Assembly: GCF_000014265.1 (NCBI RefSeq)
Contig: NC_008312.1
Coordinates: 2,400,001 to 2,432,000 of the forward strand
Source of the DNA: Trichodesmium erythraeum IMS101
GTDB taxonomy: Bacteria > Cyanobacteriota > Cyanobacteriia > Cyanobacteriales > Microcoleaceae
Direction: 5' to 3'
Length of the DNA stretch: 32,000 nt
In this document: one piece after another, positions 9,597 to 30,038 of the stretch
How positions within the stretch are numbered: position 1 is the first letter of the stretch
Layout of the letters: each line of letters starts with the position of its first letter
Made by a program: the position numbers and the translations under genes
The notes under the pieces: generated by a model
The model's database searches: none
What the model saw: the letters and a program-made list of their open reading frames with translations, nothing else
What the model was told of the DNA's origin: nothing

Positions 9597-9654
9597 ATCT
9601 TCAGGAATTTTTCCCCGTCACGATACAGAAATATTTCATCTTGTGAAGCTTCCA
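9597..9654. repeat. Copy 2 of the 58 bp dispersed repeat
   Basis: atcttcaggaatttttccccgtcacgatacagaaatatttcatcttgtgaagcttcca. Both copies lie upstream of the rca-like gene. Confidence 0.85.
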
Positions 9655-10151: not shown

Positions 10152-10249
10152 AGTTTTATCCCCCCCCCTAAATTATTTGAGTTTGTTTATGATCACAAAA
10201 AGTACCATAGAAATTCTTCCTCTGTTGAAGTTTAGCAATGAAGCTTAAT

Positions 10250-11250: not shown

Positions 11251-11288
11251 GGGAAATGTTAAAAACTCTTCAAACACAAACATTTCCC
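11251..11288 (-). terminator. Candidate intrinsic terminator of the ndhAIGE operon
   Basis: A perfect 10 bp stem pairs gggaaatgtt (11251-11260) with aacatttccc (11279-11288) around an 18 nt loop. It starts 10 nt past the ndhE stop. On the minus strand it is followed by AAUUCCUUUU, so the U-tract is weak. Confidence 0.45.
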
Positions 11289-11298
11289 AGTGCTATGA

Positions 11299-11610
11299 TT
11301 ACCACTTTAATAAGTTAAATTCTTCCATATCCACCGTATCACGGTTACGATAAATTGCTAAAACTATAGCCAAACCCACAGCAGCTTCAGCAGCAGCAAC
11401 CGTCATGACAAAGACAGTAAAAACCTGACCTTTAATATTTTGAGAATCTAGAAAATTAGAAAAACCCATCAAATTCAAATTAACAGCATTGAGAAGTAAC
11501 TCAATAGACATTAGCACCCTAACTGCATTACGACTGGTAACTAAGCCATAAATTCCTATACAAAAAAGTGCTGCTGCCAACAACAAAAAATATTCCAGTT
11601 GTAATTGCAT
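11299..11610 (-). CDS. ndhE: NAD(P)H-quinone oxidoreductase (NDH-1) subunit 4L / NuoK
   Basis: [66 protein letters not shown] is canonical NdhE. The track ORF begins 5 codons upstream, at the ATG at 11625. Homologs typically start at MQLQ, corresponding to the ATG at 11610. Confidence 0.9.
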
Positions 11611-11650
11611 AAACTTATCAACCATTTCAATTTAACAAATTATTTTAACC

Positions 11651-12274
11651 CTATTTGATTTGAGCAGAACTTTCACCAAGACTTGAAACTAATTCACGAG
11701 GACGTTCTGGCAAACTTAAAACAGGTGTTTGAGATACATTAGTTGGTACTTCATCAGGCAAAATATCTCGACGAGCTAAAATAATAGCTCCCACCATTGC
11801 TATTAACAAACACACAGAAGCAAGTTCAAAAGGGAGTAAAAAATCTGTAAAAAAGTGTTTACCAATTAACACAATTGAACTTTCTCTAGTAGCATTTCCA
11901 ACAACAGGAATTGACCAGGAACTAGACAATACCATTGTACTCAGTAAAGCAAACAAACCAAAACAAACTAAACCTGTAGCTACCTTTCTAAACCAAGCAT
12001 TAGGCAAAGCTTTAAAATCTTCTCGTTTGTTTACAAGCATAATCGCAAATAAAATCAGGACATTAACAGCCCCAACATAAATCAAAACCTGGGCAGTAGC
12101 TACAAAGTCAGCATTTAACAAAAGATATAAACCAGAAATGCTCATAAATACTCCACCCAGCAAAAACGCTGAGTGGACAATATTAGAAAATAATACTACT
12201 CCCAAAGCAGCCGCAATCATCATTACAGCTAATATAACAAATGAAACGAATTGAACTCCTTGCGCTAAATCCAC
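11651..12274 (-). CDS. ndhG: NDH-1 subunit 6 / NuoJ
   Basis: The 207-aa polytopic membrane protein has NuoJ-type sequence (SAFLLGGVFMSISGLYLLLNADFVATAQVLIYVGAVNVLILFAIML). Its position between ndhI and ndhE fits the operon. The start codon is GTG. Confidence 0.88.
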   Translation of the reverse strand: MDLAQGVQFVSFVILAVMMIAAALGVVLFSNIVHSAFLLGGVFMSISGLYLLLNADFVATAQVLIYVGAVNVLILFAIMLVNKREDFKALPNAWFRKVATGLVCFGLFALLSTMVLSSSWSIPVVGNATRESSIVLIGKHFFTDFLLPFELASVCLLIAMVGAIILARRDILPDEVPTNVSQTPVLSLPERPRELVSSLGESSAQIK

Positions 12275-12393
12275 TTTTTATTCCTTTAGAGATACTTAAA
12301 CTTTGAATTATATTTTTTTAGCTGGTAGTTATTAGTTGGTCGTGGCTAAAAATCAATTTAAACCTCTCTAAACTAATAACTAATAACTAATAA

Positions 12394-13023
12394 CTATTTG
12401 TCTGTTATTTCTGCGGCTGTTTTTTCTGCGGCTGTTTTTTCTGCTTCTATTTGTTCCAGAATTTCTTCAGGGCGCAGACCAGCACGACGTGAAGTATGAG
12501 GAACTGTATGAGGGTCAATAACTCCTTTAGGCAAATAAGCTAGTTCTCTCATAGGAGTAACCATTGGGTCATTTGTCACCTTATATGGTAGTCTACCCAG
12601 AGCCACATTATCATAATTTAACTCATGGCGATCATAAGCTGCTAACTCATACTCTTCTGTCATAGATAGACAGTTACTAGGGCAATATTCTACACAGTTA
12701 CCACAGAATATACAAACTCCAAAATCAATACTGTAATGCTTAAGCTTTTTCTTTTTGGTTTCTTTGTTAAATTCCCAATCTACTACAGGTAAATTAATTG
12801 GACAAACCCTTACACAAACTTCACAAGCAATACACTTGTCATATTCAAAGTGAATTCTACCTCGAAATCTTTCAGAAGGAATCAGCTTTTCATAAGGGTA
12901 CTGTACAGTAACAGGCCGACGGCTCATGTGGTCAAAAGTTACAGATAAACCTTGACCAATATATTTCGCTGATTGAAAAGTTTCTTTTGCGTAATCACTT
13001 ACTTGTTTGAGGAATTTGAACAT
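12394..13023 (-). CDS. ndhI: NDH-1 subunit I (2x[4Fe-4S] ferredoxin-type, NuoI)
   Basis: Two CxxCxxCxxxCP motifs are present ([12 protein letters not shown] and [12 protein letters not shown]), along with the conserved N-terminus [21 protein letters not shown]. The C-terminal tail carries a duplicated AEKTA from a 15 bp tandem repeat. Confidence 0.92.
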
Positions 13024-15283
13024 GGTTTTGCTTTATAAAACTTAGAGTGACAATTTAAACTTTATTTGATGTTAGAGATAAATTTTGTTAGTTAACATCC
13101 TACTAATATTAAATTTTTACAACAACTATGCTTTGCTTCTTAACTCAGTATGTTGTCAATTTATCTTAACCAGAACTTACACAAAGGAAGTATATAGAGT
13201 GTAAATATATAAAACAATTACCAAAAATACACTATATGTAGTAGTACTCTGTAATTACTATTAAGGTTGGTTGTTTTGCAGTGCTCTCCTTCAAAGAAGC
13301 GCCCTATGGGAAAACTAATCAATATTACTAATCAATATTGAGGTTTAACACATAGATATGTTAACGTATCTTTCCTAAATAATTAAAGGTTAACCTTCAC
13401 CTCAGCCTAGAAGCATAGGGAGATTAAAGGCCCGAAGCTGCGATGCGGTTTAATATTTCTTATGCTGCTGCACCCACCCCAACCTATTCCCCCATTTCCT
13501 CGGTAGGAACGAAGCAAGATGGTTGATGCTTGCCCAGTGTGTGCATTTAATGTCTTAGGCTACCCGCTTTAGACTAAAATATTTGTTGGTGCATTTTCCC
13601 AAGCGGTCCTACTTACTATTCACTTTTAAGACAGAACTATTCCCTGACTCAAATTTCTAACTTTCCTTTTCTTCACCAACTAGAGCAAATTTGAGAAGTA
13701 GGTTCTCACCTCCTAATTACTCTAAAATTATGACTATATTTTTCTGCAATTCCATTAAAAATGTTCCTATGGGTCGCTAACCTAGATCACTAACCCACCC
13801 CTAATTCCTCCTGGGAGGCTAGCAAGAAGGGTTGCTTACTTTTTTGACTCCATATACATATCATACTTCTAAAACAATTTTTTGGAAGTTAGCTGAATTT
13901 CAACAGATAATTTATCTAGAAAATCAATTTTTATATTCTTAAGTTTAGGGTGCAATTTAGGAAGTTTCACTCGTGGATTTTTATACCTTTTAGATCCTTG
14001 AGTTTTTTTGAGATAATAATTTACTTAACTTTCGTGCTTCGTAACTTTTATATTTTACTGACATAACCTAGGAAAAAATCTTACTTTTTGATTTATTTCT
14101 TTATATAGTTTAAGAGTATCAATTTTTTGACCATGTACAGACATTGGATTAAGGCATCCTTAAGGTAGCAAAAGTTTTAATTCCTAAATAATTACTATTG
14201 TAAATTATCAGTTTTAGGCAAAATTTATGGTAAAGTTTTTAATACAAAAGTCAGAAAATATCTATTAGCTGAATTTTGGCAGCATTTTTAAAATTACTGC
14301 TTTATAATCTGTCAGATATTTAGGTTTAGTAATTACTTCCCTAGACAAAAATATTTTTAGTTTTCCTACTTTAGGATTGCTAATAACTTTATTTTAAACA
14401 ACTTTGAACCTTTATTTTGTAAATTTTGCAGGTTATTTTAAATTTTTAATCCATAAATTCAGGTACGATTACAAGTTTACCTTTTCTCTTATCTTTTATT
14501 AATTGAAAAAGTTTTTGAGCAACGAAAAGTTGTGGTTACTGAGAAACATATTTCTGTAGTATTCCGAAGGGAAATGCACCTAGGGTTTAAATCATTTAAA
14601 GATTGCTGCAATAGTAATTTAGAAACTTTTAATAACCATTCTCTATCTTCGGTGTTTTTAGCTTAAATAATCAACTATTTTTGTAGTGAGAGAGTTAACA
14701 GGCTTATTCTCTAGTAATTTATACTTTTCATAGTTAGAAATCTAGGCTATTACGTTAGAGAAAACGGACACAACCAAATAGTTTTGTGCTCTCGGTATTT
14801 TTTTCCTGTTTTTGGAGAGATACGATAGTTAAATAATTGCGAGTTATAATCTTAAACTTTAATAGCTTTTTAGCGTAACATATTTATTAGAATAAAATAA
14901 ACCAAAAACTCAGCCCAGAAGGGCAAAACTTTAGATACAATCTTTCGAGCAATAATTTAAAAAGCAGACAAGTATTGCTTAGACCTACTCCTGAGCAGAA
15001 AAATCTGTTTCTGATGATGGACTAGATACCCTAATTTCAATAAAAAACTTAATAGTAGTAACACAGAGTTTACTAGGGCTAAATTTAAGAGAATAAATGG
15101 CCAAGTTTATCTAACTAAATCTGCTTAAACATTACCTATAAGATGGGGTAGGCAACTACCAGTTGGCTGTATACCAACTAAAATTACAGAAAATTTCTTC
15201 AGGCAGTTGCGCGAGAAAAATCAACCTAGATTTTGAGGTTTAGGAATTCCTCGTTGTTCCTTATGCGCAATCTTAGGAGGATA

Positions 15284-16402
15284 TCAACCGCCAAAGGCAA
15301 ATGGAAAGGTTAACTTTAAGGCAGCAGTTAATAGCAAATTAACTAAAGCTACTGGCAATAAGAACTTCCAACCCAAGTCTAATAATTGGTCAATTCTTAC
15401 CCTTGGTAATGTCCAACGTAACAGAACTGCTATAAATACAAGCAAATAAGTTTTGAGTAACGTCATGATAATACCCAAAGTAGCGTTGGTTATCTGTAAC
15501 CAAGGAGTTGTTTCACTGACCCCAAACCAATTAGATATAAGTTCTACTGGAAGTGGAGACTCCCAACCGCCCAGGTATAAAACCGCTACAAGTAGAGAAG
15601 ATAAAACTAAATTGACATAGGAGGCTAAGTAATACAGAGCAAATTTCATGCCAGTATATTCAGTTTGATATCCAGCTACCAATTCTTCTTCTGCTTCTGG
15701 AAGATCAAAAGGAAGACGTTCACATTCAGCCAAGACCGCTATCCAGAAAATTATGAACCCTAGTGGTTGTCTCCAGATATTCCATCCCAGAATACCATAG
15801 CTTGATTGTTGTTCAACAATATCAATTGTACTGAGACTGTTGGACATCATCGCTACTGCCAATACAGCCAAAGCCAAAGGAATTTCATAACTGATAGATT
15901 GTGCTGCTGCTCGTAGACCTCCAAGTAGAGAATATTTATTATTAGAAGCATAGCCAGACATGAGTAGTCCAATGGGTTGAATGCTCGAAAGAGCAATCCA
16001 CAAAAATATTGCTACCCCAAGGTCTGTAATTACTAAGTTTTGTCCAAATGGCACTACTAAGTAGGAAAGAAACACGGGTACAGCTACAATTACAGGCCCC
16101 AATGTGAATAGTAAGGGATCTGCTTTGGCCGGAACAACGTCCTCTTTGAAAAGTAGCTTCAAACCATCAGCAAGAGGTGCGAGAGTACCTAAAGGGCCCA
16201 TGAATTCAGGGCCAATTCTTTGTTGCGCCGCTGCAGAGATTTTTCGCTCTAGCCACACTGTTACTAAAACGCCAACAGTAGCAACAACAATCATTAATAA
16301 CATAGGGAATGGTAACCACAGAGTTTTAGCTATTTCTGAGGATAAGCCCAAATCTACAAGGGCTTGAATAAATGTTCTTTGTAGATCAATTCCTGAATTC
16401 AT
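15284..16402 (-). CDS. ndhA: NDH-1 subunit 1 / NuoH
   Basis: The 372-aa protein carries NuoH signatures: [48 protein letters not shown] and [24 protein letters not shown]. Confidence 0.93.
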
Positions 16403-16672
16403 TTACAATTTGTTTATTTATTTTAGAGAAAGTTAATTTTGAGTAAAATGGGTTACTAATGTAATCAGTGCAGATCCTTCAAAGGGATGTACAGTTCATT
16501 AGGTTAATGTTTGTTAAGAGTTATGCTAACAAAAAGATGGCCACTGCAGCCAGTTTGTTATACAAGTTAAGACAGCTAATTTTCCTATCCTAAACCCTTG
16601 AAATTAGGCAATTCTCACAGGTTCCTGGCATGAATTGCTTAATCTTGTTTGCACTTAATACAACATAAAGAA

Positions 16673-17824
16673 TTAGATTAAGGCTCGCTCTTCAAGGGAA
16701 GTATAAGCAATATTATGATCTCCGGAATAAATTTGTGTAGGACGGAAAATTCGATTGGCTGCTAATTGCTCTTTCCAGTGAGCTAACCAACCAGCCACAC
16801 GAGCAATGGCAAATACAGGGGTAAATAAATCGCTAGGAATACCTAATTTCCGATAAACAAGACCAGAATAAAAATCCACATTTGGGTAAATTCCTTTGTG
16901 ACCTAGTTTTTCCTCTACCACCTTTTCCATTTCTAGAGCTATCTGATAATACTTGTCGTCGCCAAACTTTTCAAATAAATCTACTGCTAGTTCCTGAAGG
17001 ATGATAGCTCTTGGATCTTTTACTTTATAGACTCGGTGACCAAAACCCGCAATTTTGGCCTTAGTCTCAAAACATCGTTTTAAATATGGTTTAACATTTT
17101 CTACCGAACCAATTTCAGACAACATACTAATTACATCTTCATTTGCCCCCCCATGTAGTGGACCGGCAAGAGTTCCCACTGCTGAAGCTATAACTCCGTA
17201 GGGATCAGTTAAGGTAGAAGCAGTTACCATTGCTGAGAATGTAGAAGCATTAATAGTATGTTCAGCATGAAGAGTCAGACAAATATCAAATACTTTTGCT
17301 GCTAATGGATCGGGTTCTCTTTCATTGAGCATATACAAAAAGTTGGCTGCATAGCCCAAGTCATCCCTTGGCTTTACAGGATCGTTACCTTTACGCATTA
17401 ACTCAAAGGCAGCTACCATTGTGGGTATATTGGCCAGTAGCCTGACTACTGCTTTCCTAATATATTCTGGGTTATCAAGAGCACGACGAGAATAAAATAA
17501 ACCCAGAGCTGCTGCTGAAGTCTGTAGAGCATCCATAGGATGTCCAGTCTCCGGGAAACATTTCATCATGTCCCGAATTCTATATTTGATTCTTCTGTTT
17601 AGGCAAATCTCTTGCTCAAAGCTTTGCAATTCTTCTTGAGTAGGAAGGTTGCCCCAAATTAACAAATATGCTGCTTCCAGAAAAGAACTCTTTTTTGCCA
17701 ATTCTTCAATATTAATGCCTCGGTATTCCAATATCCCTTTTTGTCCATCGACGTAGCTGACACTTGATTGGGTAGCAGGAACACCTTCTAAACCAGGCTT
17801 AAATTCAATGCAGACGACGGACAT
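16673..17824 (-). CDS. gltA: Citrate synthase
   Basis: The 383-aa protein carries LHAEHTINASTF, GPLHGGANE and GFGHRVYK..DPRA, the citrate synthase catalytic motifs. Confidence 0.93.
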   Translation of the reverse strand: MSVVCIEFKPGLEGVPATQSSVSYVDGQKGILEYRGINIEELAKKSSFLEAAYLLIWGNLPTQEELQSFEQEICLNRRIKYRIRDMMKCFPETGHPMDALQTSAAALGLFYSRRALDNPEYIRKAVVRLLANIPTMVAAFELMRKGNDPVKPRDDLGYAANFLYMLNEREPDPLAAKVFDICLTLHAEHTINASTFSAMVTASTLTDPYGVIASAVGTLAGPLHGGANEDVISMLSEIGSVENVKPYLKRCFETKAKIAGFGHRVYKVKDPRAIILQELAVDLFEKFGDDKYYQIALEMEKVVEEKLGHKGIYPNVDFYSGLVYRKLGIPSDLFTPVFAIARVAGWLAHWKEQLAANRIFRPTQIYSGDHNIAYTSLEERALI

Positions 17825-17921
17825 GATGATCCCCTTTATTTAGATATGAATATACTCAAGCTACATTATCAAGTAGTTGAGTTGTGTTATTTTTTTAACA
17901 ATAAAATATTAATAGTTTTAG

Positions 17922-18428
17922 TTAATCCAGTATAAATCTTGGGGGTGTCAACCAAAACATTTGACTATTACCGACTGGTGAACCAATTTCTGGTAATGAA
18001 GTTCCTATTATACCAGCTTTTTTGAGTATTAATACTTGTTTTACTTCTCCCCAGATTAGAATTTCTGCCCAGTTTGCTAAGTTTGGTTGATGGCCTACCA
18101 TGGCTAATTCTTTATTTGATTGAGGTGACCATCGTTCTAGCCATTGTAACCAGAGATTAATATTTCCACTAGGGGCTAAAGGTGAAAATTCTTCTACTTT
18201 GGAACTTAATTTATGAGCTTGAAGAATTTTAGCTGTTTGATTTGCTCTAACTAAGGGACTGGTCAGAATTAAGTTGAAATGAAGACCTAATTGTTTGAGT
18301 TTTTGAGCAATTTTGTGGGTTTTGCGATCGCCTATTTCTGTCAAAGGACGTTCTCCATCTGTGGCATAATTTTCTCTATCAGCAGCTATACCGTGACGGA
18401 TAAAATAAACATTTGTACTCATAATCAC
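17922..18428 (-). CDS. sixA: Phosphohistidine phosphatase SixA (histidine phosphatase superfamily)
   Basis: VYFIRHGIA (the RHG motif), ILTSPLVRANQTAKIL and MVGHQPNL match SixA, and the ~165-aa length fits. The start could be M1 or M3. Confidence 0.8.
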   Translation of the reverse strand: MIMSTNVYFIRHGIAADRENYATDGERPLTEIGDRKTHKIAQKLKQLGLHFNLILTSPLVRANQTAKILQAHKLSSKVEEFSPLAPSGNINLWLQWLERWSPQSNKELAMVGHQPNLANWAEILIWGEVKQVLILKKAGIIGTSLPEIGSPVGNSQMFWLTPPRFILD

Positions 18429-19276
18429 ACTTTTTTCTTATATGGTGTTTTCACCATCATTTTATTGGATAACAGTCAAACTTTGCAGCATAAAAAATTA
18501 GATTGGTAAGTAAGAATAAATTAATATTGAATCAACAAAGTTTAGCAATTAAAAATTACCTAGATTTAAAATAAATTGATTGAATAAAAAGAAAAAGTTT
18601 TGTTATCCTTAAAATGATCACCTTTAAGATCTAAATAGCAATTAAGAACACAATTTATAGCAATTCTAATTTTTTCCATCTATTCTTCAGTTATGATCTA
18701 TAATAATATTATATTAAGTCTCAAAGTATCATAAATTAGCCATAATAAAAATACTTTTTTCACATCATTTAATAACTTTTTTCCAATTCCTAAATTCCTA
18801 TTTTTTTTCACAGTGAGTATTCAAAGAGACATGATATAAGTTATTAACTTGAGTTGCATATCAAGGAAAGAATTTAGTCTACAAAAAGAATTAAAAGTTA
18901 TGAATTAAATTTTTCAGGACTCTAATCTTAGTCGTTTTTTAAATACTTTTAAAAGTAAAAAACCTGAATACTTACCTTAATTTAATCATGACTAACAAAT
19001 CAGGTCAATAGCCTCGCCTTTTAAGGGATAAAAAAAGAAAATTTTATACTTTGTCACCTCTGGCTGTGCAAATAAGTATTAGAGTTGTTGGGTGTAGGAA
19101 AATTGAAAATACTTAAAAGCTTACTCTTAATGGTTTTCATAATTTTAAGCCTTAAAAGTACACTTAAACCTGAACTTGTTTTGGGTTTTAGCTATTTTTT
19201 GGGCTTCATTCCCAACAACTCTATTATTAATTCACTGGTAGCTGACAACTCAAAAACAGATTGTTATTTTTGATAC

Positions 19277-19304
19277 AAAAAACCCTGCCCTTAAACAGGC
19301 AGGG
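19277..19304 (-). terminator. Intrinsic terminator downstream of the HNH gene (stem-loop usable on both strands)
   Basis: A 7 bp stem pairs ccctgcc (19283-19289) with ggcaggg (19298-19304) around an 8 nt loop. On the minus strand it is followed by UUUUUU (plus-strand aaaaaa, 19277-19282). It begins 3 nt after the HNH stop codon. Confidence 0.7.
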
Positions 19305-19307
19305 GTT

Positions 19308-19811
19308 TTACAGTCCGATAACATATTTTTGCCATTCTTTATTCATACCACTTTTAACATGTTTAGTTAATTCAAAGTAAAGACCACTGCGAGGTTTTCG
19401 AGGAGGGCAGTCCAAAATCATATTAGCTTCTTTTGGGGTCCGACTTCCTTTTTGTACATTGCAACGGACACAAGCCGTTACGAGGTTTTCCCAAGTATCA
19501 CCACCACCACGCGATCGCGGTATTACGTGATCTAAAGTTAAATCATCACCCATATAACCACAGTATTGACAAGAATGACCATCTCGGTGGAAAACATTTC
19601 GACGCGTCAAAGGAATATCTTTGTACGGAACTCGGATATAATAGCGCAGTCGGATGACTGTAGGTAAGGGAATATCTGGGAGAAGATATATTCCCTTATG
19701 TTCAATTTGCTCCGCTTTACCTTTGAGCAACAAGACGATCGCTCGTCGCCAACTCGTGATATTGAGCGGTTCATAAGAAGCGTTCAACACTAAAACATTG
19801 GCCATTGACAT
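19308..19811 (-). CDS. HNH endonuclease family protein (McrA-like small HNH)
   Basis: CQYCGY..LTLDHVIPRSRGG..TWENLVTACVRCNVQKG is a complete HNH/zinc-finger motif. The protein is 167 aa. Confidence 0.85.
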   Translation of the reverse strand: MSMANVLVLNASYEPLNITSWRRAIVLLLKGKAEQIEHKGIYLLPDIPLPTVIRLRYYIRVPYKDIPLTRRNVFHRDGHSCQYCGYMGDDLTLDHVIPRSRGGGDTWENLVTACVRCNVQKGSRTPKEANMILDCPPRKPRSGLYFELTKHVKSGMNKEWQKYVIGL

Positions 19812-20397
19812 TTCTGAAAAGAGGATATTTTCTCAGATATTAGCATATTTGACGTCCTTAAGCACAAAAGTTGAGATTTCAGCAGTTTTCTATCAAGTTT
19901 ATAAGTGGAATAACTTATGTTTTTGTTTTTTCAAAAAAACATTTCTTTTTCAAATTAATGATATATAACTATATGGCTTTAAAAGGGTTTTCTTGAAAAT
20001 TTGATCAATTATTTGACAATGGCTAAAAAAAGTGAAGTAAGAACTTGTATGGTTAGTAAATTGTTTAACTAAGTAACATTCCCGCCCAAGGAAGAACTAA
20101 AAGCTATCAAAATATATGGCTGGTTGTAAGTTAAGCAACATCAAAAAATGGACATTGGTGTTGTTACGGTGCAGGGAGCGAGTAGACAATATGCTTCAAA
20201 CTATCACCTATAAGCATCTTATTCAAAGAGCAAAACAATACCTGCAACAGCTTTACTCTGGTGATGCTATACAAATTTAATGTGGAGCTTGGAGGGGGTT
20301 AACTATCGCACACGCTCTAGATATATCCTGATGAGTGTAAATTTTGGGAGTAGATAATTTTATTTACGCAAAGGCACTAGTTAAGGGATGGATAAAA

Positions 20398-21585
20398 ATG
20401 TTGAGTAGAGAAAAGACTTCTTTTAAGACTCTAGCACTAGAAAGTGATGCTTATGGAGGTATTTGTCAAAGAGCATGGGTAGAAATTAATGATCGGGCAT
20501 TGAGCTATAATGTCCAACAACTTAAGAGTCTTTTATCAGCTAAAACTCAACTAATGGGAGTAGTAAAGGCAGATGCTTATGGACATGGAGCGTCTAAGAT
20601 CTCTAAAACTATTTTAGAAGCTGGTGTAGATAGGTTGGCAGTAGCCACACTGCCAGAGGGAATAGAATTAAGGTTAGCTGGAATTAAACCACCAATTTTA
20701 ATTTTAGGAGCAATAGACCGACCTGAACAAATTCGGGCGATCGCTCACTGGCAACTAGAACCAACTATTTGTACACCTCAACAAGCTTTAGTTTTTTCAG
20801 AAACTCTTTCCTACCAAACTGAACCAATGCTAGTACATCTTAAGTTGGATACAGGAATGTCTCGTTTGGGAACACCTTGGCAACAGGCGGTAGAATTTGT
20901 AAAATTTGTGCAGGGGTTACCAAATTTAAAAATTGCTAGTATTTATTCCCACTTAGCGACGGCGGATAACTTAGACCAAACGGTGATGAAGCAGCAGCAT
21001 CAAAGGTTTGAGGAAGCAATAGGTCTTTGTGGTATTGGTGGAAAAAGTTTTTCTAGTGATATACAACTTCATTTAGCTAATTCGGCGGCGACGTTAACTG
21101 ACCCTGCTTTACACTACGATATGGTACGAGTAGGTTTAGCTATTTATGGCCTGTATCCGGCACCTCATCTACAGGATAAAATTAATTTAAAGCCTGTTAT
21201 GCAAGTAAAAGCTAGGGTGACACAAGTCAAAACTATTGAAGCTGGTACTGGTGTGAGTTATGGTTATCAGTTTATTGCTCCAAAACAGATGCGTTTGGCA
21301 GTGGTGGGTATTGGTTATGCTGACGGTTTACCTCGTAACCTTTCTAATAGGATGAAAGTCATTGTACGCGATCGACTAATTCCTCAAGTAGGAGCTATTA
21401 CTATGGATCAGTTGATGTTAGATGTAAGTGCTATTCCTGATCTAGAAACGGGTGAAGTGGTAACTTTGTTAGGGCAAGTTGGTAAACATCAAATTTCTGC
21501 TGAAAACTGGGCAAATACTCTAGGAACTATTTCTTGGGAAATTCTTTGTGGTTTTAAAAATAGGTTGCCTCGGGTAGCAGTTTAG
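20398..21585 (+). CDS. alr: Alanine racemase
   Basis: AWVEIN..AL..N, the PLP-lysine motif VVKADAYGHG, SHLA.AD and VSYG match alanine racemase. The track ORF starts at a TTG at 20344. The ATG at 20398 (MLSREK...) fits homolog lengths better. Confidence 0.9.
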   Translation: MLSREKTSFKTLALESDAYGGICQRAWVEINDRALSYNVQQLKSLLSAKTQLMGVVKADAYGHGASKISKTILEAGVDRLAVATLPEGIELRLAGIKPPILILGAIDRPEQIRAIAHWQLEPTICTPQQALVFSETLSYQTEPMLVHLKLDTGMSRLGTPWQQAVEFVKFVQGLPNLKIASIYSHLATADNLDQTVMKQQHQRFEEAIGLCGIGGKSFSSDIQLHLANSAATLTDPALHYDMVRVGLAIYGLYPAPHLQDKINLKPVMQVKARVTQVKTIEAGTGVSYGYQFIAPKQMRLAVVGIGYADGLPRNLSNRMKVIVRDRLIPQVGAITMDQLMLDVSAIPDLETGEVVTLLGQVGKHQISAENWANTLGTISWEILCGFKNRLPRVAV

Positions 21586-21841
21586 AAATTAAATTAGGGA
21601 GAGTTATCAGTTATGAGTATTGACTGTGCTCAGGCAGATGCTTTTAATACTGAGTTTGATTGTTTTTTATAAGCACTATTACAGTTGTTGAAAGCATACT
21701 CTAGTTTGAGTGATGGTTATAATAAGAGGTTCAGTCTTCAGGGGGTGAAAAGCTAGCGGAAAGTTATATATAGAATGTTTTTGCGTTGGAGAACTCAATC
21801 ATAATTCTACTAAAAGAAAAGACAACGCTTATTGAAAATAA

Positions 21842-21888
21842 AGGGGTGTGGTATGTTCATGGAGTGAACGCACTACACCCCTATTTTT
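21842..21888 (+). terminator. Strong stem-loop plus T-run; an orphan intrinsic terminator 257 nt past the alr stop
   Basis: aggggtgtggt (21842-21852) pairs with actacacccct (21872-21882) as an 11 bp stem with one G-U pair. It is followed by attttt. It is preceded by aaaataa, so it could act bidirectionally. Confidence 0.6.
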
Positions 21889-22566
21889 GGTTAATTATTT
21901 TTTCATTTAAGGATGTTTTACAATAGTTAAATATCAGATTAATAAAGGTTTGTAATTACAAATAAAAATCAATAAAAGTGAGTATTTTAAGGTTTTATAA
22001 AAGCTATATTGAGTAAGGTTTGAGCCCATTTGAAGTGGCAATATTACAAATATTCTCCTCAGTAAGTATCAGTATATAAAACTTACAAATATGCAATTTA
22101 AGTAATTATTTTACCCTGTCAATAAAATCATAAAGTAAGGGCAAACATATACAATTTTTTTTGATTATCAATGAGTTAAATTTACCTTTATTCTGGCTTG
22201 CTTTAGTTGAAAAAATTTTTTATACCCTCTTTTTTTTGATAAATTTTTAATTACAATTATAGCTAAAGTTTGATTTTGCTGATATCTCTTGATGGCTTTT
22301 CTCAAAAACGAGTTAGCAAATGTGATAAGTATTAGTAGTGCTTAAGGTAAATCATGCTTTAACTATTTGAATTTATCAAGACTTATACCACTTTTAAATA
22401 ATACTGTTACAGTACTAAGTTATTTTGCAGTTGAGTGTTGAGATTAATACTGTAGCTACCTTTTTTGAATTTGGTATTTTTCAATAATAATCAATAGGGT
22501 TATTGCTATAATTCAATTTTTTTATAGAAACAAAGTTTTATTTAATTATAACTCCCATAATTTGAT

Positions 22567-23040
22567 TTATTGATAACCAAGGTCTGAGGGTAAATCAAGT
22601 TTTTGAGAAGCTTTGACCGCTAATTTATCACAGCGTTCATTTTCTATATTTCCAGAATGACCCCGTACCCAAGAAAATTCAACTTGATGTTTACTGCATA
22701 AATCTAATAATTTTCCCCATAGATCGGGGTTCATTGCTTTATCTTTTTTATTCCGTTTCCAACTGTTAGCTCGCCAACGTTTTGCCCAACCTTTTGTAAC
22801 AGCATCAACTATATATTTAGAGTCAGTATATAAATTGACAATTGATGGAATTTCTAGTTGTTCTAATCCTACTATTACTGCCATTAATTCCATACGATTA
22901 TTAGTGGTTAATTTATAACCTCCAGATAATTCTTGGCGTTTTTTCTCAGATAAAATAATTATACCATAACCACCAGGGCCGGGATTTCCACTACAAGCAC
23001 CATCAGTATAGATAGTAATTTCGGTTCTTTTTTCTGTCAT
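22567..23040 (-). CDS. rnhA: Ribonuclease HI
   Basis: ITIYTDGACSGNPGPGGYG, TNNRMEL, YTDSKY and W..VRGHSG...NE.CD are the RNase H catalytic DEDD-context motifs. The protein is 157 aa. Confidence 0.92.
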   Translation of the reverse strand: MTEKRTEITIYTDGACSGNPGPGGYGIIILSEKKRQELSGGYKLTTNNRMELMAVIVGLEQLEIPSIVNLYTDSKYIVDAVTKGWAKRWRANSWKRNKKDKAMNPDLWGKLLDLCSKHQVEFSWVRGHSGNIENERCDKLAVKASQKLDLPSDLGYQ

Positions 23041-23169
23041 TTTAGTTACTTATTATTACGGTAAGTTTCTTCTAAAGAAGAAGGGAGTAATATAGTATTT
23101 AAGCACGTAAAGGAAAAGATGACAAATTATTTCAGAAAAAGCAGCATTAAGGAATATATTTAATAGGCT

Positions 23170-24051: not shown

Positions 24052-24396
24052 ATGGCTATGGATATAAAGAAGAAAAGACTATTTAAATTAGATGGATTTA
24101 TTAAGCTATTAAAATTTATTAGTTTTGGGGTTGGAGTTTTTGCGATCGCAGGAATAGCAATCTATCCTTTAATAGGCAATAAACCTGTAGATGAAGTCAA
24201 GGATAAAACAGAAGAAACTACTAGTGTTTTACCTCCTGCTAACTATACAATTATTATGGGTAAACAGGAGAATGAAGTAGTTATAAAGTTCCACAAACAA
24301 GCTTCAGAATTACACCTAAAGAATATATCTACTAAAGAGTCTAATTGCTTGCTCAATGGCGGCAGATTAAATTGTGTTTTAGCTACAGCTTACTAA
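24052..24396 (+). CDS. Hypothetical protein with an N-terminal transmembrane helix; possibly truncated by an in-frame TAA (see findings)
   Basis: The 114-aa ORF has a hydrophobic segment FISFGVGVFAIAGIAIYPLIG near the N-terminus and no recognised domain. The same frame stays open for 57 more codons after the TAA. Confidence 0.4.
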   Translation: MAMDIKKKRLFKLDGFIKLLKFISFGVGVFAIAGIAIYPLIGNKPVDEVKDKTEETTSVLPPANYTIIMGKQENEVVIKFHKQASELHLKNISTKESNCLLNGGRLNCVLATAY

Positions 24397-24734: not shown

Positions 24735-27700
24735 CTAATATTTATCTTGATTTTGTTTTGATTCATTTTTCTCATTTAAAAATATTTGATAGTTTTTCAG
24801 AACTGTTTGAGTGTTGGGATGTTCTTCACCTAATGATTGTGTAAATATTTCAATAGCTTGTAGGTACAAAGGTTCAGCTGCTTCGTATTTTCCTTGTTCA
24901 CGATATAATTCTGCCAGGTTGTTGAGGTCTCTTGCAAGAGATGGATGATTTTCAGGGAGGGCGATTTTGTCGATTTCTATTGTTTGTAGATACAATTGTT
25001 CTGCAGCTTCGTATTTTCCTTGTGCATGATATAATCCTGCCAGGTTGTTGAGGTGTGTGGCTAATTGTGGATGATTTTCTGGGAGGGCGATTTTGTCGAT
25101 TTCTATTGCTTGTAGAAACAAAGGTTCTGCAGCTTCGTATTTTCCTTGTGAATGATATAATAATGCCAGGTTGTTGAGGTCTGTGGCAAGAGATGGATGA
25201 TTTTCAGGGAGGGCGATTTTGTCGATTTCTATTGCTTGTAGGAACAAAGGTTCTGCAGCTTCGTATTTTCCTTGTTCACGATATAATTCTGCCAGGTTGT
25301 TGAGGTCTCTTGCAAGAGATGGATGATTTTCAGGGAGGGCGATTTTGTCGATTTCTATTGCTTGTAGGAACAAAGGTTCTGCAGCTTCGTATTTTCCTTG
25401 TAACTTATATAATGCTGCCAGGTTGTTGAGGCCGCTGGCTATATTTGGATGATTTTCAGGGAGGGCGATTTTGTGGATTTCTATTACTTGTAGGAACAAA
25501 GGTTCTGCTGCTTCGTATTTTCCTTGTACACGATATAAATTTGCCAGGTTGTTGAGGTGTGTGGCAATACCTGGATGATTTTCAGGGAGGGCGATTTTGT
25601 GGATTTCTATTGCTTGTAGGTACAAAGGTTCTGCTGCTTCGTATTTTCCTTGTGCACGATATAAATTTGCCAGGTTGTTGAGGTGTGTGGCACGTTGTGG
25701 ATGATTTTCAGGGAGGGCGATTTTGTCGATTTCTATTGCTTGTAGGTACAAAGGTTCTGCAGCTTCGTATTTTCCTTGTAACTTATATAATGCTGCCAGG
25801 TTGTTGAGGCCGCTGGCTATATTTGGATGATTTTCAGGGAGGGCGATTTTGTCGATTTCTATTGCTTGTAGGAACAAAGGTTCTGCAGCTTCGTATTTTC
25901 CTTGTGAATGATATAATAATGCCAGGTTGTTGAGGTCTGTGGCAAGAGATGGATGATTTTCAGGGAGGGCGATTTTGTCGATTTCTATTGCTTGTAGGAA
26001 CAAAGGTTCTGCAGCTTCGTATTTTCCTTGTAACTTATATAATGCTGCCAGGTTGTTGAGGCCGCTGGCTATATTTGGATGATTTTCAGGGAGGGCGATT
26101 TTGTGGATTTCTATTACTTGTAGGAACAAAGGTTCTGCTGCTTCGTATTTTCCTTGTACACGATATAAATTTGCCAGGTTGTTGAGGTGTGTGGCAATAC
26201 CTGGATGATTTTCAGGGAGGGCAATTTTGTGGATTTCTATTGCTTGTAGGTACAATTGTTCAGCTGCTTCGTATTTTCCTTGTGCACGATATAATGATGC
26301 CAGGTTGTTGTAAATAGCTGCAATATCAGAATTATTTTTATCTAAACGTTTTTCAGCTATTTCTTTACCTTTCTCTAACCAAGGTTGTGCCAGTGGGTAC
26401 AATCCTTGACCTTGATAAAATGAGCCTAAGCTTGTAAAAGGTATAATCAAATCATCATCGCTCAAATATTCAGCCAAATTGTCTGCTATTTCTGTAATAT
26501 GAGGTATATCAATCTCAACTTCTTTAACTTGTTCTACTGTAATGTCATTGTTATAAGGAATTTTCTCTGCCGCACCTACAATTACCCGACAAAACTGAGA
26601 CTTCAACTGTTCTACTTCCTTCATTGCATTCAACTTATCTTGAAAATATCGACGTACTAATTGATGCAATTCATAAGTTCCCTGTGTTGTCTTTTGAATT
26701 AAATTTAAATCTAACAAAGTATCTTCCCTAATATCTTCCCAAGTTCTTGAATCTAATACATCAACTTTTTTTGGAGGCATCAATAATAACCATAAACGTG
26801 AAAAAGTAGGAAACCACCTTTGTATAATTCCTTTCTCCTGACTTTCATCTTTAGACAAACATTTTTCCACCAAATTCCAAGGTATAGGAGCCAATGCAAA
26901 AAGACTCAACAAACAGCCCAAATACCTTCCCCTTTCATCTAATTCATTCCAACTCAATTCAAAAGCAGCGGCTACTCCACGCTGTGCTGTCATTTCTCCC
27001 TGTGGTGGGTTCTGTAGCACCGAGAAATTTAAAGCTTGTTTTTCCAACTCTTGTATCATTCTTTCCAATGTCCATTCAGACCGCCTCTTCAGAAATCGCC
27101 CCACCAACTCTAATCCCAAGGGTAAATATCCCAACCATTCACAAAGTTGCTTTGCTTCCTCTATTTGTGTCCCTAAACGAGAATTGCCAATTAAGACCTC
27201 TAATAATTCTAAAGCAGAATCTTCATCCAAAACCTCCAAACGTAACTGTGAAAAAGATTCTGACAACCAATATTTACGAGTAGTAATTAATAATTTAAAA
27301 CGTTGTTTTTGTGGAGGTAAATACTGCTCAATTTCTTCATATTTATTAACATCATCTAGAACAATTAAAACATCTCCAGGTGGTTGCCAATTTGACCAAC
27401 AAAAGCTAATTCTTTCTTCTAAACTCCAATCTTCAGCCGGAAATAATCCTAATTGAGTTTGAGCAAAGCTTAATAACTGTTCTCCCACACTTCTTTCCCT
27501 AACATTTATCCAACAAATACCACCAGGATAATTCAACTCCTTTTCAGATAAAAGAGAATATTGAAGTGCTAATTCTGTTTTCCCAACGCCTGCCATACCT
27601 GTAACTACTGCTGTAATAGATACACGCTCTTTTTCCTGAAGTTGTTCATGTAAATTTTCGATATCTTTATCTCGACCAACAAATTTAACAGCACCAGTTC

Positions 27701-27902
27701 GTAATATATTTAAATTATTAGGAAACTCTGCTGGCTCACCCTTCCATGAAACATTTTTTGTGTCATTAATAATTGTCTTAGCAAAAGTTGAATTTACAAT
27801 ATTGCCTGAATTAACACCAACACCATGAGTCTCCTTAATATCAACTTTATCCTCAAAATTATCTGACATATTAACCTTGTTTATGATTTGGATTTTTGCC
27901 AA
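24735..27902 (-). CDS. NB-ARC (STAND) NTPase with a C-terminal array of 12 near-identical 42-aa TPRs; NLR-like
   Basis: NB-ARC motifs are GMAGVGKTELA (Walker A), VLIVLDDV (Walker B), KLLITTR and GYLPLGLELVG (GLPL). These are followed by repeats of NHP..A..LNNLA.LY..QGKYEAAEPL.LQAIEI.KIALPE. The likely true start is the ATG at 27869 (MSDNFEDKV...), by homology to the N-terminus of the upstream ORF. Confidence 0.9.
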   Translation of the reverse strand: MAKIQIINKVNMSDNFEDKVDIKETHGVGVNSGNIVNSTFAKTIINDTKNVSWKGEPAEFPNNLNILRTGAVKFVGRDKDIENLHEQLQEKERVSITAVVTGMAGVGKTELALQYSLLSEKELNYPGGICWINVRERSVGEQLLSFAQTQLGLFPAEDWSLEERISFCWSNWQPPGDVLIVLDDVNKYEEIEQYLPPQKQRFKLLITTRKYWLSESFSQLRLEVLDEDSALELLEVLIGNSRLGTQIEEAKQLCEWLGYLPLGLELVGRFLKRRSEWTLERMIQELEKQALNFSVLQNPPQGEMTAQRGVAAAFELSWNELDERGRYLGCLLSLFALAPIPWNLVEKCLSKDESQEKGIIQRWFPTFSRLWLLLMPPKKVDVLDSRTWEDIREDTLLDLNLIQKTTQGTYELHQLVRRYFQDKLNAMKEVEQLKSQFCRVIVGAAEKIPYNNDITVEQVKEVEIDIPHITEIADNLAEYLSDDDLIIPFTSLGSFYQGQGLYPLAQPWLEKGKEIAEKRLDKNNSDIAAIYNNLASLYRAQGKYEAAEQLYLQAIEIHKIALPENHPGIATHLNNLANLYRVQGKYEAAEPLFLQVIEIHKIALPENHPNIASGLNNLAALYKLQGKYEAAEPLFLQAIEIDKIALPENHPSLATDLNNLALLYHSQGKYEAAEPLFLQAIEIDKIALPENHPNIASGLNNLAALYKLQGKYEAAEPLYLQAIEIDKIALPENHPQRATHLNNLANLYRAQGKYEAAEPLYLQAIEIHKIALPENHPGIATHLNNLANLYRVQGKYEAAEPLFLQVIEIHKIALPENHPNIASGLNNLAALYKLQGKYEAAEPLFLQAIEIDKIALPENHPSLARDLNNLAELYREQGKYEAAEPLFLQAIEIDKIALPENHPSLATDLNNLALLYHSQGKYEAAEPLFLQAIEIDKIALPENHPQLATHLNNLAGLYHAQGKYEAAEQLYLQTIEIDKIALPENHPSLARDLNNLAELYREQGKYEAAEPLYLQAIEIFTQSLGEEHPNTQTVLKNYQIFLNEKNESKQNQDKY
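24825..26336. repeat. Intragenic tandem array, 12 x 126 bp (the TPR units), including a 5-unit-offset internal duplication
   Basis: gggagggcgatttt recurs at 24955, 25081, 25207 and onward with period 126. The 280 bp at 25313-25592 are identical to 25943-26222, an offset of 630 = 5 x 126. Confidence 0.95.
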
Positions 27903-28261
27903 TCTTCCAAAGCTGCAATAACAAAGCTACTAGCAGGATGATTAAGTAATTGTTCAACAGCAGCAACTCCACCAGCTTTTATAGCGCTAAATATTTTTTG
28001 TGCCTTAGTCGGATGATTATCAATATGTGTAATTACCTCTGTAGCAATTTTCATTCTGTCCATTGTTGTTTCTGACGGATAAGTTTTTTCTAGTTGCTCT
28101 AGTAATTCTTGAATATCTCTTGCTGCTTCTGTCAAGTTTTGTTGTTGAGATTCATAAATTGTCATTGTCTTAGCAAATTTTGAGGTATTAATATTTCCCT
28201 TGTTAATACCTACACCATAAACTTCTTGAATAGAAACTTTATCCCCGGAATTTTCTGACAT
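27881..28261 (-). CDS. Small helical protein sharing the N-terminal ~35-aa motif of the downstream NB-ARC/TPR protein
   Basis: The 126-aa ORF begins MSENSGDKVSIQEVYGVGINKGNINTSKFAKTMTI, against MSDNFEDKVDIKETHGVGVNSGNIVNSTFAKTIIN in the NTPase (20/35 identical). Its stop lies 11 nt upstream of the NTPase ATG at 27869. The remainder is predicted helical (..AARDIQELLEQLEKTYP...AIKAGGVAAVEQLLNHPASSFVIAALEDWQ). Confidence 0.7.
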   Translation of the reverse strand: MSENSGDKVSIQEVYGVGINKGNINTSKFAKTMTIYESQQQNLTEAARDIQELLEQLEKTYPSETTMDRMKIATEVITHIDNHPTKAQKIFSAIKAGGVAAVEQLLNHPASSFVIAALEDWQKSKS

Positions 28262-29000
28262 ATTTGTACCTAATTTAGAATTTGATATTTAATGGGCTTT
28301 TTAACTCTCCCACATATTAACTTAAAAAAGGAATAGCGATCGCCACCAAAGCAAACTCAACAGACTCCATTTTAAACTTCCCTAGCTAATATAGTTGTCC
28401 AAACATTATACGAAGCTACAAGGAAGTTAACAAAAACCAACAAAATACTCACTTAAATTTTTCAACATCTATGCAACGAACCCAACAATTTAGTAATCAC
28501 AAATACATCCCAATATTGCCAGAGAAAACGGGAATATTGACCGAAATGGGTCAAAAGCAGTATTCAGTAAATTTATTTAATATATATAAAAATATTATCT
28601 ATAGGTAAATCCTGTCCAGTTATCCGAAATGCCAATGCCCAACCTACTAACTACAATACATATAGCAGTCCGTTGGGGGTTGCGACAAATCAAAAAGTAA
28701 ATAAAACCTTTAAAACTCTTACCTATTCTCTGTTCCCTCTTCCCTGTTCCCTAAAAAGCAGTAGGATTTTTGCCATGAACACTCATAGGATTGCTATAGT
28801 AGAGTTGTTTAGAAATAAAAATTTAAAATCCTCAAAAGTTTACTCTATAAAGTATTCATAATTTTAGGCATCAATAACACTATAAACCTTGACTGATAAT
28901 CGTTCCAGCCATTTTTTGGCCTGAATTCCCCACAACTCTAGTATATTGAGATAAACAAGTTTTTGATAAACTTCTGTGTGAATCTGTAATAATAAAACTG

Positions 29001-30038
29001 ATGAACTCAATATCACAAACTCAATCCCGCAAAGCAGATCATCTAAGAGTTTGCTTAGAATCAGATGTCCAATTTAACAACAAGACCAATGGATTAGACA
29101 AATACCGTTTTACTCACTGCTGTTTACCAGAACTAAACCGCAGTGAAATAGATACTAAAACTACATTTCTTGGGAAGCAACTGGGCGCGCCATTATTAAT
29201 ATCTTCGATGACAGGTGGCACTGAGCAAGCTAAAATGATTAATTATCGGTTAGCCAAAGTTGCCCAACACTATAAAATAGCCATGGGAGTTGGTTCCGAA
29301 CGAGTTGCGGTAGAAAATTCCCAAGTGGCTGATACTTTTGCTGTGCGATCGCTTGCTCCTGATATTCTATTGTTTGCCAACCTAGGAGCTGTCCAACTCA
29401 ACTATAATTATGGCATTGACCAGTGCCAACGAGCGATTGATATTTTAGAAGCAGATGCCCTCATTTTACATCTCAATCCTCTTCAAGAGTGCATTCAGAC
29501 TGAAGGTGATACTAATTTCCGAGGTATCCTTGACAAAATATCAAAATTGTGCTATTCGCTGTCAGTGCCAGTAATTGCTAAAGAAGTAGGTAATGGGATT
29601 TCCGGTTCAATGGCCAAAAAGTTAATTGATGCTGGAGTAGGAGCGATTGACGTTGCAGGAGCTGGAGGGACTTCTTGGGCAAAAATTGAAGGGGAGCGGG
29701 GGAAAGACCCACTTCAGCGTCGGTTAGGAAATACTTTTGGGAATTGGGGTTTACCTACTGCAGAATGTATTAGCGCTATCCGCACCCTGAATTCAGACAT
29801 TCCTCTAATTGCTTCTGGAGGGTTACGAAATGGGTTAGAAGTAGCAAAGGCGATCGCTCTTGGTGCAGATCTAAGTGGATTAGCTTGGCCATTTCTTCAA
29901 GCAGCAGTCAAATCAGAAGAATCTCTCAATTTATTAGTAGATATATTAATAGCAGAAATAACGACAGTTCTATTTTGTACAGGCAATGCCAATTTATTAG
30001 AACTGAAAAAATCTCAGGCTTTAGAAAAATTAACATAA
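29001..30038 (+). CDS. fni: Isopentenyl-diphosphate delta-isomerase, type 2 (FMN-dependent)
   Basis: [37 protein letters not shown] and [19 protein letters not shown] form the typical IDI-2 TIM-barrel signature. The protein is 345 aa. Confidence 0.9.

Follow-up and report, generated by a model that had tools for sequence, protein, structure and literature searches.

Which role has a small protein whose N-terminus recurs on the NTPase encoded next to it, and are both proteins coupled by the shared sequence? The question is raised by two genes of the cyanobacterium Trichodesmium erythraeum IMS101, which lie on the minus strand of a stretch of 32,000 nucleotides (NCBI RefSeq assembly GCF_000014265.1, contig NC_008312.1, positions 2,400,001 to 2,432,000; in the following the window, with its first letter as position 1). 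The first open reading frame (ORF), 27881..28261 (-), codes for 126 amino acids (aa) and is 100% identical to Tery_1588 of this strain. The second, 24735..27902 (-), has 1055 aa and codes for an NB-ARC/TPR protein of the NLR type. No mention of Tery_1587 or Tery_1588 was found in the literature. An earlier note on this DNA had reported the positions and sequences of both ORFs, which were reproduced by our ORF calls, and had interpreted the shared N-terminus as an adaptor. This interpretation is supported by the sequence comparisons described below. In our estimation the chances are about even that both genes form an NLR module, whose sensor acts on a small output protein by templating via the shared motif.

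The shared N-terminal motif

The motif comprises the first 35 codons of both genes, MSENSGDKVSIQEVYGVGINKGNINTSKFAKTMTI in Tery_1588 (copy 1, 28157..28261, -) and MSDNFEDKVDIKETHGVGVNSGNIVNSTFAKTIIN in the NTPase (copy 2, 27765..27869, -). At residue level 20 of the 35 codons are identical, as had been counted before, and BLASTP with compositional adjustment aligned 20 of 33 residues (61%) with E = 8e-11. In a six-frame search of the window each copy matched only the other one with E = 2e-10, and the next match had E >= 0.37. Thus, the match is due neither to chance nor to low complexity, the objection that the earlier note had itself raised. The motif follows an alternating hydrophobic pattern, KV.I.E - GVG - (I/V)N.GNI - S.FAKT. 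A profile search with the motif alone against an index of 5.8 billion proteins, the sensitivity of which is limited by its word index, gave only seven short fragments.

The structure of the small protein was predicted with AlphaFold2 (AF2) from a 21-sequence alignment. As a monomer, residues 1-26 were disordered, with a predicted local distance difference test (pLDDT) value below 50 for the motif. Residues 26-37, where helix 1 of the following domain starts, were also of low confidence, and the shared sequence extends into them.

Read from the ATG at 27869, the NTPase gene (24735..27869, -) codes for 1044 aa plus stop and its product begins MSDNFEDKV. This start is supported by orthologues beginning with MSEN, and it is kept together with the 11-nt gap between the genes in the related Trichodesmium contig L085. 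Pfam assigned an NB-ARC domain (PF00931, E = 1.4e-20, residues 78-292, 27027..27671, -) and about 12 TPR_10/TPR_12 repeats, with E = 1.2e-130 for TPR_10 in 12 stretches (sensor region 24783..26546, -). Walker A (GMAGVGKT, 27576..27599, -) and a Walker B-like sequence (VLIVLDDV, 27348..27371, -) are located within NB-ARC. With both Walker motifs and supersecondary-structure repeats the protein belongs to the STAND NTPases (NB-ARC/AP-ATPase clade, TPR sensor). No domain besides NB-ARC and TPR was given by Pfam, so that no effector domain of its own is seen; this agrees with the earlier description of the protein as a short N-terminus, NB-ARC and TPRs. The TPR sensor itself contains tandem units of 126 nt (42 aa), for which Tandem Repeats Finder gave 11.6 copies with 88% identity (24847..26310, -). 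Fungal NLRs, too, are known to contain highly similar internal repeats, and there recombination diversifies them.

The conserved C-terminal domain

Behind the motif, Tery_1588 consists of a conserved C-terminal helical domain, in the following CTD (residues 38-126, 27884..28150, -). The helical nature of this part had been proposed before and is confirmed by the AF2 model, in which residues 26-125 form five helices with pLDDT of about 90. In alignments of homologues, residues ~38-126 are well conserved and the first 30-50 residues are wholly different between lineages. Near-invariant positions are L43, A46, A47, I50, Q51, L54, L57, Y61, A73, A93, G97 and A101, followed by L106-N-H-P-A110, F113, A117, L118, D120 and W121 in the signature LNHPA..F..AL.DW. 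Five of them form a conserved polar cluster (N107, H108, D120, W121, Y61), and small residues are arranged as a ladder, A93-x3-G97-x3-A101.

With a CTD profile, 1,588 clusters (50% identity) were found at E <= 1e-3 among 1.84 billion cluster representatives, and 1,001 at E <= 1e-10. The domain terminates within 10 residues of the protein C-terminus in 306 of the 323 sequences examined. The sample of CTD proteins is enriched in near-identical sequences of Trichodesmium and Okeania. A scan with one genome per species gave 173 confirmed CTD loci, of which the best 80 are all cyanobacterial. Most genera among these 80 are filamentous (Okeania, Dapis, Trichodesmium, Nostoc, Scytonema, Calothrix, Rivularia, Microcoleus, Symploca), besides a few colonial unicells, e.g. 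Crocosphaera and Microcystaceae. Several paralogues occur per genome; Okeania sp. SIO3I5 alone has at least five CTD loci. Where CTD proteins are listed with names, the organisms are likewise cyanobacteria only, and the names cover only the other domains of the proteins.

The CTD could not be assigned to a described family in the databases searched. For the protein and 21 family members, Pfam at E <= 1 gave only scattered sub-threshold matches to unrelated helical families such as DUF4404, Med10 and 4HB_MCP. No match was detected in NCBIfam or, for the small protein, in PADLOC (PADLOC-DB v2), where the NLR matched a generic TPR model only. A profile search against the PDB sequences had its best hits in unrelated helical proteins (E of 0.047). 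Foldseek with the CTD model gave a best E of 0.64 and TM-scores below 0.4 against the PDB and no match in BFVD, a set of predicted viral structures; the PDB entries returned included no Death fold (six-helix antiparallel bundle; DD, CARD, PYD). In the passages searched of the papers on bacterial amyloid signalling and on EAD/TRADD-N systems the CTD does not appear.

Several identities were considered for the small protein and discarded. Its UniRef name, pentapeptide repeat, does not fit, since Pfam gave no Pentapeptide match (tandem A(D/N)LXX repeats) for Tery_1588; the name probably derives from proteins of ~700 aa with pentapeptide repeats and transmembrane (TM) segments, which carry the same CTD at their C-terminus. 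EAD and Death-like domains were rejected as identity of the CTD for want of a Pfam or fold match. EACC1 was rejected as the small partner because it is a single-TM protein, and Pepco/Trypco because it is a beta-barrel.

Pairing of motifs and partners in cyanobacteria

For the survey of loci, the CTD gene and its neighbours were taken from the best 80 loci, with our own ORF calls and a simple score threshold. Besides stand-alone small proteins like Tery_1588, the CTD was found at the C-terminus of pentapeptide-repeat/multi-TM proteins, behind short CHAT (caspase-like) domains, behind Peptidase_C25 plus CHAT and behind LRR-Roc-COR GTPases. Furthermore, it follows an NB-ARC-TPR protein and an HsdM-type methylase with pentapeptide repeats (domains assigned by Pfam).

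Common to all architectures is an abundance of N and G in the 30-50 residues ahead of the CTD. Within 40 residues preceding the domain, enrichment was 3.3x for N, 1.8x for G, 1.7x for Y, 1.55x for Q and 1.5x for I; L (0.18x) and P (0.29x) were depleted, with V at 0.82x and K at 0.98x. The segments fall into at least eight motif classes with several members and about 33 singletons. Examples are GVG(I/V)N.GNI, GNYNERIEGNYIQGNYY, SGNFGIGHMSGG.I..GAKVAG, DLRGAN..NFAN...DNARQQANQYNY, NF.APV.GVAGNVEG and HSGSGDNVAGDK.

The segment ahead of the CTD is repeated at the extreme N-terminus of the downstream protein in 25 of the 42 loci for which a downstream ORF was called. Smith-Waterman scores of these pairs were between 77 and 168, compared with a median of ~22 for non-cognate pairs. 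When upstream ORFs and ORFs on the opposite strand are counted as well, a motif partner within 7 kb was found for ~40 of 74 CTD genes (background of this search, 957 ORF comparisons: median 22, 90th percentile 32). The downstream partners are NB-ARC plus TPR proteins in Okeania and Trichodesmium, NACHT proteins with a multi-TM region and a zinc ribbon in Nostocales, and otherwise TRADD-like_N plus pentapeptide, TM plus TPR or unknown domains. The presence of the small ORF next to orthologous NLRs, which the earlier note had wanted to see in relatives, was observed in Okeania (L002-L005, L013, L016) and in other lineages of Trichodesmium (L085-L089).

The motif is not restricted to N-termini of downstream genes. 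It was detected at the C-terminus of the immediately upstream ORF, namely in TM/TPR proteins (L072, L074, L078) and in a TM protein of 201 aa (L051, L071), on a bare CHAT domain encoded upstream, at its N-terminus (L080), and on a second CTD gene (L025, L028). Two natural fusions join what is separate elsewhere. A protein of 360 aa (L032) has the order CTD, motif, X; in L044 the pair is separate and X is encoded as the downstream protein. P0168 carries the CTD followed by TRADD-like_N as the counterpart of the pair in L070.

The tag formed by the motif is thus found on neighbouring proteins of many kinds, and we infer that it mediates homotypic contact. The recurrence on neighbours (~40 of 74 loci), the fusions and the concerted evolution described below speak for the adaptor idea of the earlier note. 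Its likeness to a folded death-domain-like module did not hold, since the shared element is a short N/G-rich segment predicted to be disordered.

Some further features of these loci were observed. In L025 and L028 (Microcoleus and a cyanobacterial metagenome-assembled genome) two CTD genes with a GNFGIGHMSGG motif lie ~1.2 kb apart, with a third motif-bearing ORF on the opposite strand, so that one locus can hold at least three genes with the motif. Okeania-type proteins (L006-L022 from Okeania and Dapis; P0067, P0079) carry the motif as three to four tandem decapeptides G-x-x-G-x-x-G-E-I-x, for example GVVGKEGEIH GAVGNKGEIY GLAGSQGEIN; the Trichodesmium motif holds a single unit of this kind. 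In the fusions behind CHAT, pentapeptide/TM and Roc-COR parts (L006-L022, L045, L047, L052-L068, L059, L079) a Met is kept where the stand-alone proteins start, e.g. ...NQGDTM-SESSGD and ...KSNM-TGNRNI. This suggests that either whole genes were fused when a stop codon was lost, or the small protein is also made from an internal start. Two metagenomic proteins look like further recombinants or assembly chimeras: in P0106 a pentapeptide-repeat N-terminus is joined directly to the last ~35 residues of the CTD, and in P0100 the motif and half of the CTD are joined to NLR-type TPR repeats.

The architectures described above allow another explanation, which we consider unlikely. The motif could serve for stable, constitutive, non-amyloid docking (e.g. 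as a beta-zipper), and the CTD protein could be a regulatory subunit, a guard, cap or inhibitor that prevents self-assembly of the NLR motifs or ends it, instead of an effector. A solubilising or capping domain would be expected directly beside the motif, where the CTD always is. The CTD has neither a membrane nor an enzymatic signature. The genes are tightly linked and probably co-expressed, and the CTD is fused C-terminally to proteins with candidate effectors or sensors of their own (CHAT, NACHT-type with TM, Roc-COR, NB-ARC-TPR). However, the NLR of the minimal pairs of Trichodesmium and Okeania has no effector, and a purely inhibitory partner would leave such a pair without output. Moreover, a constant domain of 85 aa with near-invariant polar residues N107, H108, D120, W121 and Y61 resembles a binding or active surface more than a passive cap.

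Concerted evolution and recombination

The two motif copies of the window are 71% identical in DNA, i.e. 29% of the nucleotides differ. Of the 19 identical degenerate codons, 15 use the same codon, and 8.8 were expected from codon usage. This excess of same-codon use, together with the nucleotide identity, points to a recent shared DNA ancestry (a recent duplication) or to gene conversion or sequence exchange between the copies. Comparison between loci gave a similar picture. The motif of the small protein scores 102 against that of its own NLR, and in comparisons with orthologous small proteins of Okeania the scores are 64-77; for the small protein of L003 they are 168 against its own NLR and 78 against the small protein of L002. 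An insertion GVGIGVG is present in both members of the pairs in L003, L004, L005 and L013 and in neither member in Trichodesmium. Judged by these comparisons, the motif copies within one locus evolve in concert.

In P0105, a weak homologue match, the Trichodesmium motif (88% identity with the copy of Tery_1588) is joined to another body, named domain X here. The domain X protein of 170 aa (L085:2786-3298, also in L081-L089) is helical and has the hydrophobic tail VAGYLGYAVGTIWSMLP; no Pfam match was obtained for domain X. Possibly the NLR has in it a second partner, which is directed to the membrane. In the metagenomic Trichodesmium contigs L085-L089 the gene for domain X is followed after 26 nt by a motif-CTD gene of 142 aa and, after a further 11 nt, by the orthologous NLR, which starts with MSENFEDKVDINKNYGIGFNSGNIVNSTFAKTI. 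The sister Trichodesmium lineage has thus three consecutive genes with the motif, and domain X is missing from the window.

For the analysis of this difference the region 28162..28410 of the window was compared with L085:2637-3440. L085 is 90.7% identical to window positions 26326..28246, and positions 28164..28410 are 88.7% identical to the 5' region of gene 1 of L085. Gene 1 (motif plus domain X) matches the 5' untranslated region of Tery_1588 (to ~28410) and the first 96 nt of the gene with 94-97% identity. From about nt 100 on, the match is with gene 2 (motif plus CTD), at 97% identity. Both parts meet at the 3' end of the motif-coding repeat, in the junction GCTAAG-ACAAT-G-ACAATTTAT, with ACAAT-G-ACAAT as crossover. 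Since its 5' part matches gene 1 and the remainder gene 2, Tery_1588 is, on the evidence of these alignments, a recombinant of both sister genes and lacks domain X as well as the 5' end of gene 2. Its origin is most economically explained by a deletion from one motif-coding direct repeat to the other; the converse insertion is a less economical alternative.

Upstream of ~28410, about 150 nt before the first gene, the homology between window and L085 stops (regions 28262..29000 and L085:1-2636). L085 is flanked by genes for an AAA_22 ATPase and YdjM, the window genes by an ORF for an FMN-dependent dehydrogenase (29001..30038). Thus, the module and its promoter region are located in different neighbourhoods in two close lineages.

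Recombination at the motif raises the question whether the shared N-terminus has a function at all. It could be a mere by-product of duplication or gene conversion, such as a duplicated translation-initiation region or a joint for cassette shuffling. The excess of identical codons, the crossover inside the motif-coding repeat of the small gene and the Met kept at the motif start of fusion proteins would be in line with this. We consider it very improbable, because pairing occurs in at least eight unrelated motif classes, in several cyanobacterial orders and with different partner families. Moreover, a duplicated start region does not account for motifs at both N- and C-termini of partners. The motifs also have a marked composition in common, rich in N/G and poor in L/P, and the protein sequence is kept where 29% of the nucleotides have diverged.

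The sister locus bears on a further alternative. The CTD might be a constant adaptor that binds a shared hub encoded elsewhere (a protease, a pore or a transcription factor), comparable to the 'constant components' of EACC/TRADD-N systems. One invariant domain with dozens of motif classes and many partner architectures, a strongly conserved polar patch and multiple paralogues per genome (at least five loci in Okeania sp. SIO3I5) are compatible with this explanation, and domain X, which bears the motif in the same operon of the sister lineage, could be the true effector. But no conserved third gene was found beside the CTD in the loci examined, and IMS101 has lost domain X and yet has the CTD gene and the NLR intact. 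An adaptor function of this kind appears to us improbable.

Comparison with known signalling systems

Amyloid and prion-like signalling from NLRs is established in fungi, where the HeLo domain is remodelled when the prion domain of HET-s folds. The HET-S/NWD2 pair of Podospora anserina is similar to the arrangement proposed here, in that an N-terminal NLR motif templates a homologous motif abutting a helical execution domain. In both cases the motif overlaps the terminal helix of this domain and the NLR has highly similar internal repeats. Differences are the bacterial origin, the mirror-image polarity and the lack of a HeLo domain in our case, as well as a single motif copy per protein in Trichodesmium and three to four decapeptide repeats in the Okeania fusions.

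A bacterial counterpart is the Bell-BASS/NLR pair (Dyrka et al. 2020). Here as there a small gene adjoins a collinear NB-ARC/TPR or NACHT gene, and a motif of 20-40 aa, rich in N, G and Q and poor in P and L, is shared by the small protein with the NLR, in which it stands at the extreme N-terminus. Many motif families, an occurrence in filamentous or multicellular cyanobacteria, short intergenic gaps and an NLR without its own effector are further common features. Such pairs are defined by a short motif on the NLR N-terminus and on an adjacent collinear gene, and the same was found in our locus. In the preprint (Dyrka et al., bioRxiv 10.1101/2020.01.06.895854) the bias of BASS motifs is given as enrichment of N, Q, G and beta-branched hydrophobics and depletion of P, L and K. 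The segments ahead of the CTD agree with this for N, G, Q, I, P and L; V (0.82x) and K (0.98x) do not fit. The globular domain differs as well, being neither Bell- nor HeLo-like, with no hydrophobic helix at its N-terminus and without a fold or sequence match; in the small protein HeLo, HeLo-like and SesA gave no Pfam match at E <= 1. In addition, the partners include TRADD-N, CHAT and TM/TPR proteins, and some bear the motif at the C-terminus.

According to the report on Bab/Agp (BASS11), an antiphage system of E. coli, such pairs can act as abortive-infection defence (Ibarlosa et al. 2024, bioRxiv 10.1101/2024.11.07.622273). Bab/Agp is also a two-gene module of a small helical protein and a large TPR-containing sensor with a common terminal motif. 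In contrast to our NLR the sensor Agp has the architecture TPR-GreA/B-C-PIN and is not a STAND NTPase, and Bab has a C-terminal motif and a Bell-related domain, whereas the CTD has no detectable relation to solved structures.

The third group of comparison is formed by the EAD-coupled and TRADD-N conflict systems found in multicellular bacteria (Kaur, Burroughs, Iyer, Aravind; eLife 2020 PMC7159879, 2021 PMC8195603). In these systems the same module stands on the N-terminus of an NTPase and on a neighbouring protein, and adjacent copies are closest relatives, as was found in our loci. Several paralogues per genome, a 'constant component' with variable partners and a partner repertoire of STAND, CHAT/caspase, TRADD-N, pentapeptide and Roc-COR proteins are also common to both. 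Compared with the folded alpha-helical EAD or Death-like domains described there, the shared element of 33-40 aa is predicted to be disordered, and the helical CTD is not shared with the NLR. Motif and CTD did not match the Pfam models for EAD, bDLD or EACC.

Because the motif precedes the domain, the domain is not Bell- or HeLo-like and the shared element is not a folded EAD, the locus was not filed as a BASS/Bell or EAD system. It is treated as a variant of motif-coupled NLR signalling around an undescribed domain family. The position of the motif N-terminal to the domain and the CTD as partner domain are new compared with described amyloid signalling.

Proposed mechanism

The following sequence of events would account for the module. 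The TPR array would sense a ligand or stress signal, upon which NB-ARC would exchange its nucleotide and oligomerise, so that the N-terminal motifs become clustered. The clustered motifs would fold to a beta-arch or amyloid-like template, which recruits and converts the motif of the small protein as in HET-s/NWD2 and Bell-BASS/NLR. Conversion of the motif, which runs into helix 1, would remodel or cluster the CTD and switch on its output, most plausibly cell-death execution or a downstream immune signal. Templated beta-assembly is favoured for the contact because length, N/G-rich and L/P-poor composition, hydrophobic alternation, disorder of the monomer and the position on the NLR N-terminus resemble BASS/FASS motifs. 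Remodelling of the CTD by conversion of the tag is possible since the shared sequence reaches the start of its first helix. No candidate for the output other than the CTD is present in the minimal pair.

A number of observations weigh against this mechanism. The CTD has no obvious membrane-inserting or TM-length hydrophobic helix and no enzymatic or catalytic signature, so the label effector follows mainly from the absence of another candidate. Every described BASS/FASS effector has the reverse order of motif and globular domain. Lysine and other charged residues are fairly frequent in the Trichodesmium motif, in contrast to the depletion of K in BASS motifs, and in a simple string comparison GNYNE, NYNER, GVGI and FGIG were absent from the pairs of Dyrka Table S2 (BASS1-10). 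AF2 monomer models of the small protein and of P0067 show no beta structure in the motif; in P0067, with its three to four decapeptide repeats, pLDDT of the motif was below 50 and no beta-solenoid was seen. Many CTD proteins, above all the Okeania pentapeptide/TM fusions of ~700 aa, have no motif partner within 7 kb. The similarity at DNA level and the recombination at the motif mean that the likeness of the copies is partly recombination history and not only selection. Finally, the neighbours in the window are housekeeping genes and do not form a defence island.

Beyond this locus a more general proposal can be made, which we regard as possible rather than probable. The CTD would found an undescribed family specific for cyanobacteria and would be the constant cell-death or immune-signal output of a large network of NLR, TRADD-N, CHAT and Roc-COR proteins. 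It would be switched on from its N-terminal side by prion-like templating via dozens of co-evolving N/G-rich motif classes, as a mirror image of HET-S and Bell. The motif DNA repeats would double as recombination joints by which effectors with the motif are added, swapped or deleted between close strains, the chimeric gene of IMS101 being one such event.

Amyloid or prion-like signalling has recently been shown for one antiphage system of E. coli as well, and in bacteria it has so far been tied mainly to Bell-type effectors with a C-terminal motif. The locus points to a second, apparently much larger repertoire in cyanobacteria, with an unnamed helical domain and the reverse polarity. Its motif classes are many and co-evolve, and they connect the domain with STAND NTPases, TRADD-N, caspase-like CHAT and Roc-COR proteins. 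Caspase-like programmed cell death of Trichodesmium has been linked in the literature to the collapse of its blooms. If the CTD is indeed an execution or signalling domain, it would make regulated cell death and defence against phages accessible at the molecular level in filamentous cyanobacteria. With proteins of 126 aa and 1,044 aa (the NLR), the minimal pair lends itself to direct expression and mutagenesis, and the two- and three-gene variants provide a natural comparison.

Gene organisation and neighbourhood

The spacing of 11 nt on the same strand, from which an operon had been suggested, was found as described: the spacer acaaggttaat (27870..27880, -) extends from the stop codon of the small ORF to the ATG of the NTPase at 27869 and is also present in L085. 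No terminator-like site was found between both genes. A promoter-like site (TTGTTA, 17-nt spacer, TATAAT; 28405..28433, -), identified by consensus match only, lies ~145 nt upstream of the small ORF and is the best match of the region with 10 of 12 positions. With this spacing, the site upstream and no terminator between them, the small gene and the NTPase gene are probably co-transcribed.

Scans of the whole window with Rfam and for tRNA gave nothing. A defence-island context was rejected because of the genes nearby, which code for Rubisco activase, NDH-1 subunits, citrate synthase, alanine racemase, RNase H and the FMN-dependent dehydrogenase. At positions 1..23100 a DEAD-box helicase, Rubisco activase, NDH-1 genes (NADHdh, 4Fe-4S, chain 6), citrate synthase, alanine racemase and RNase HI are encoded. 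An ORF of 114 aa without Pfam match (24052..24396, +), which is convergent with the 3' end of the NLR gene, encodes a product that has one predicted hydrophobic segment.

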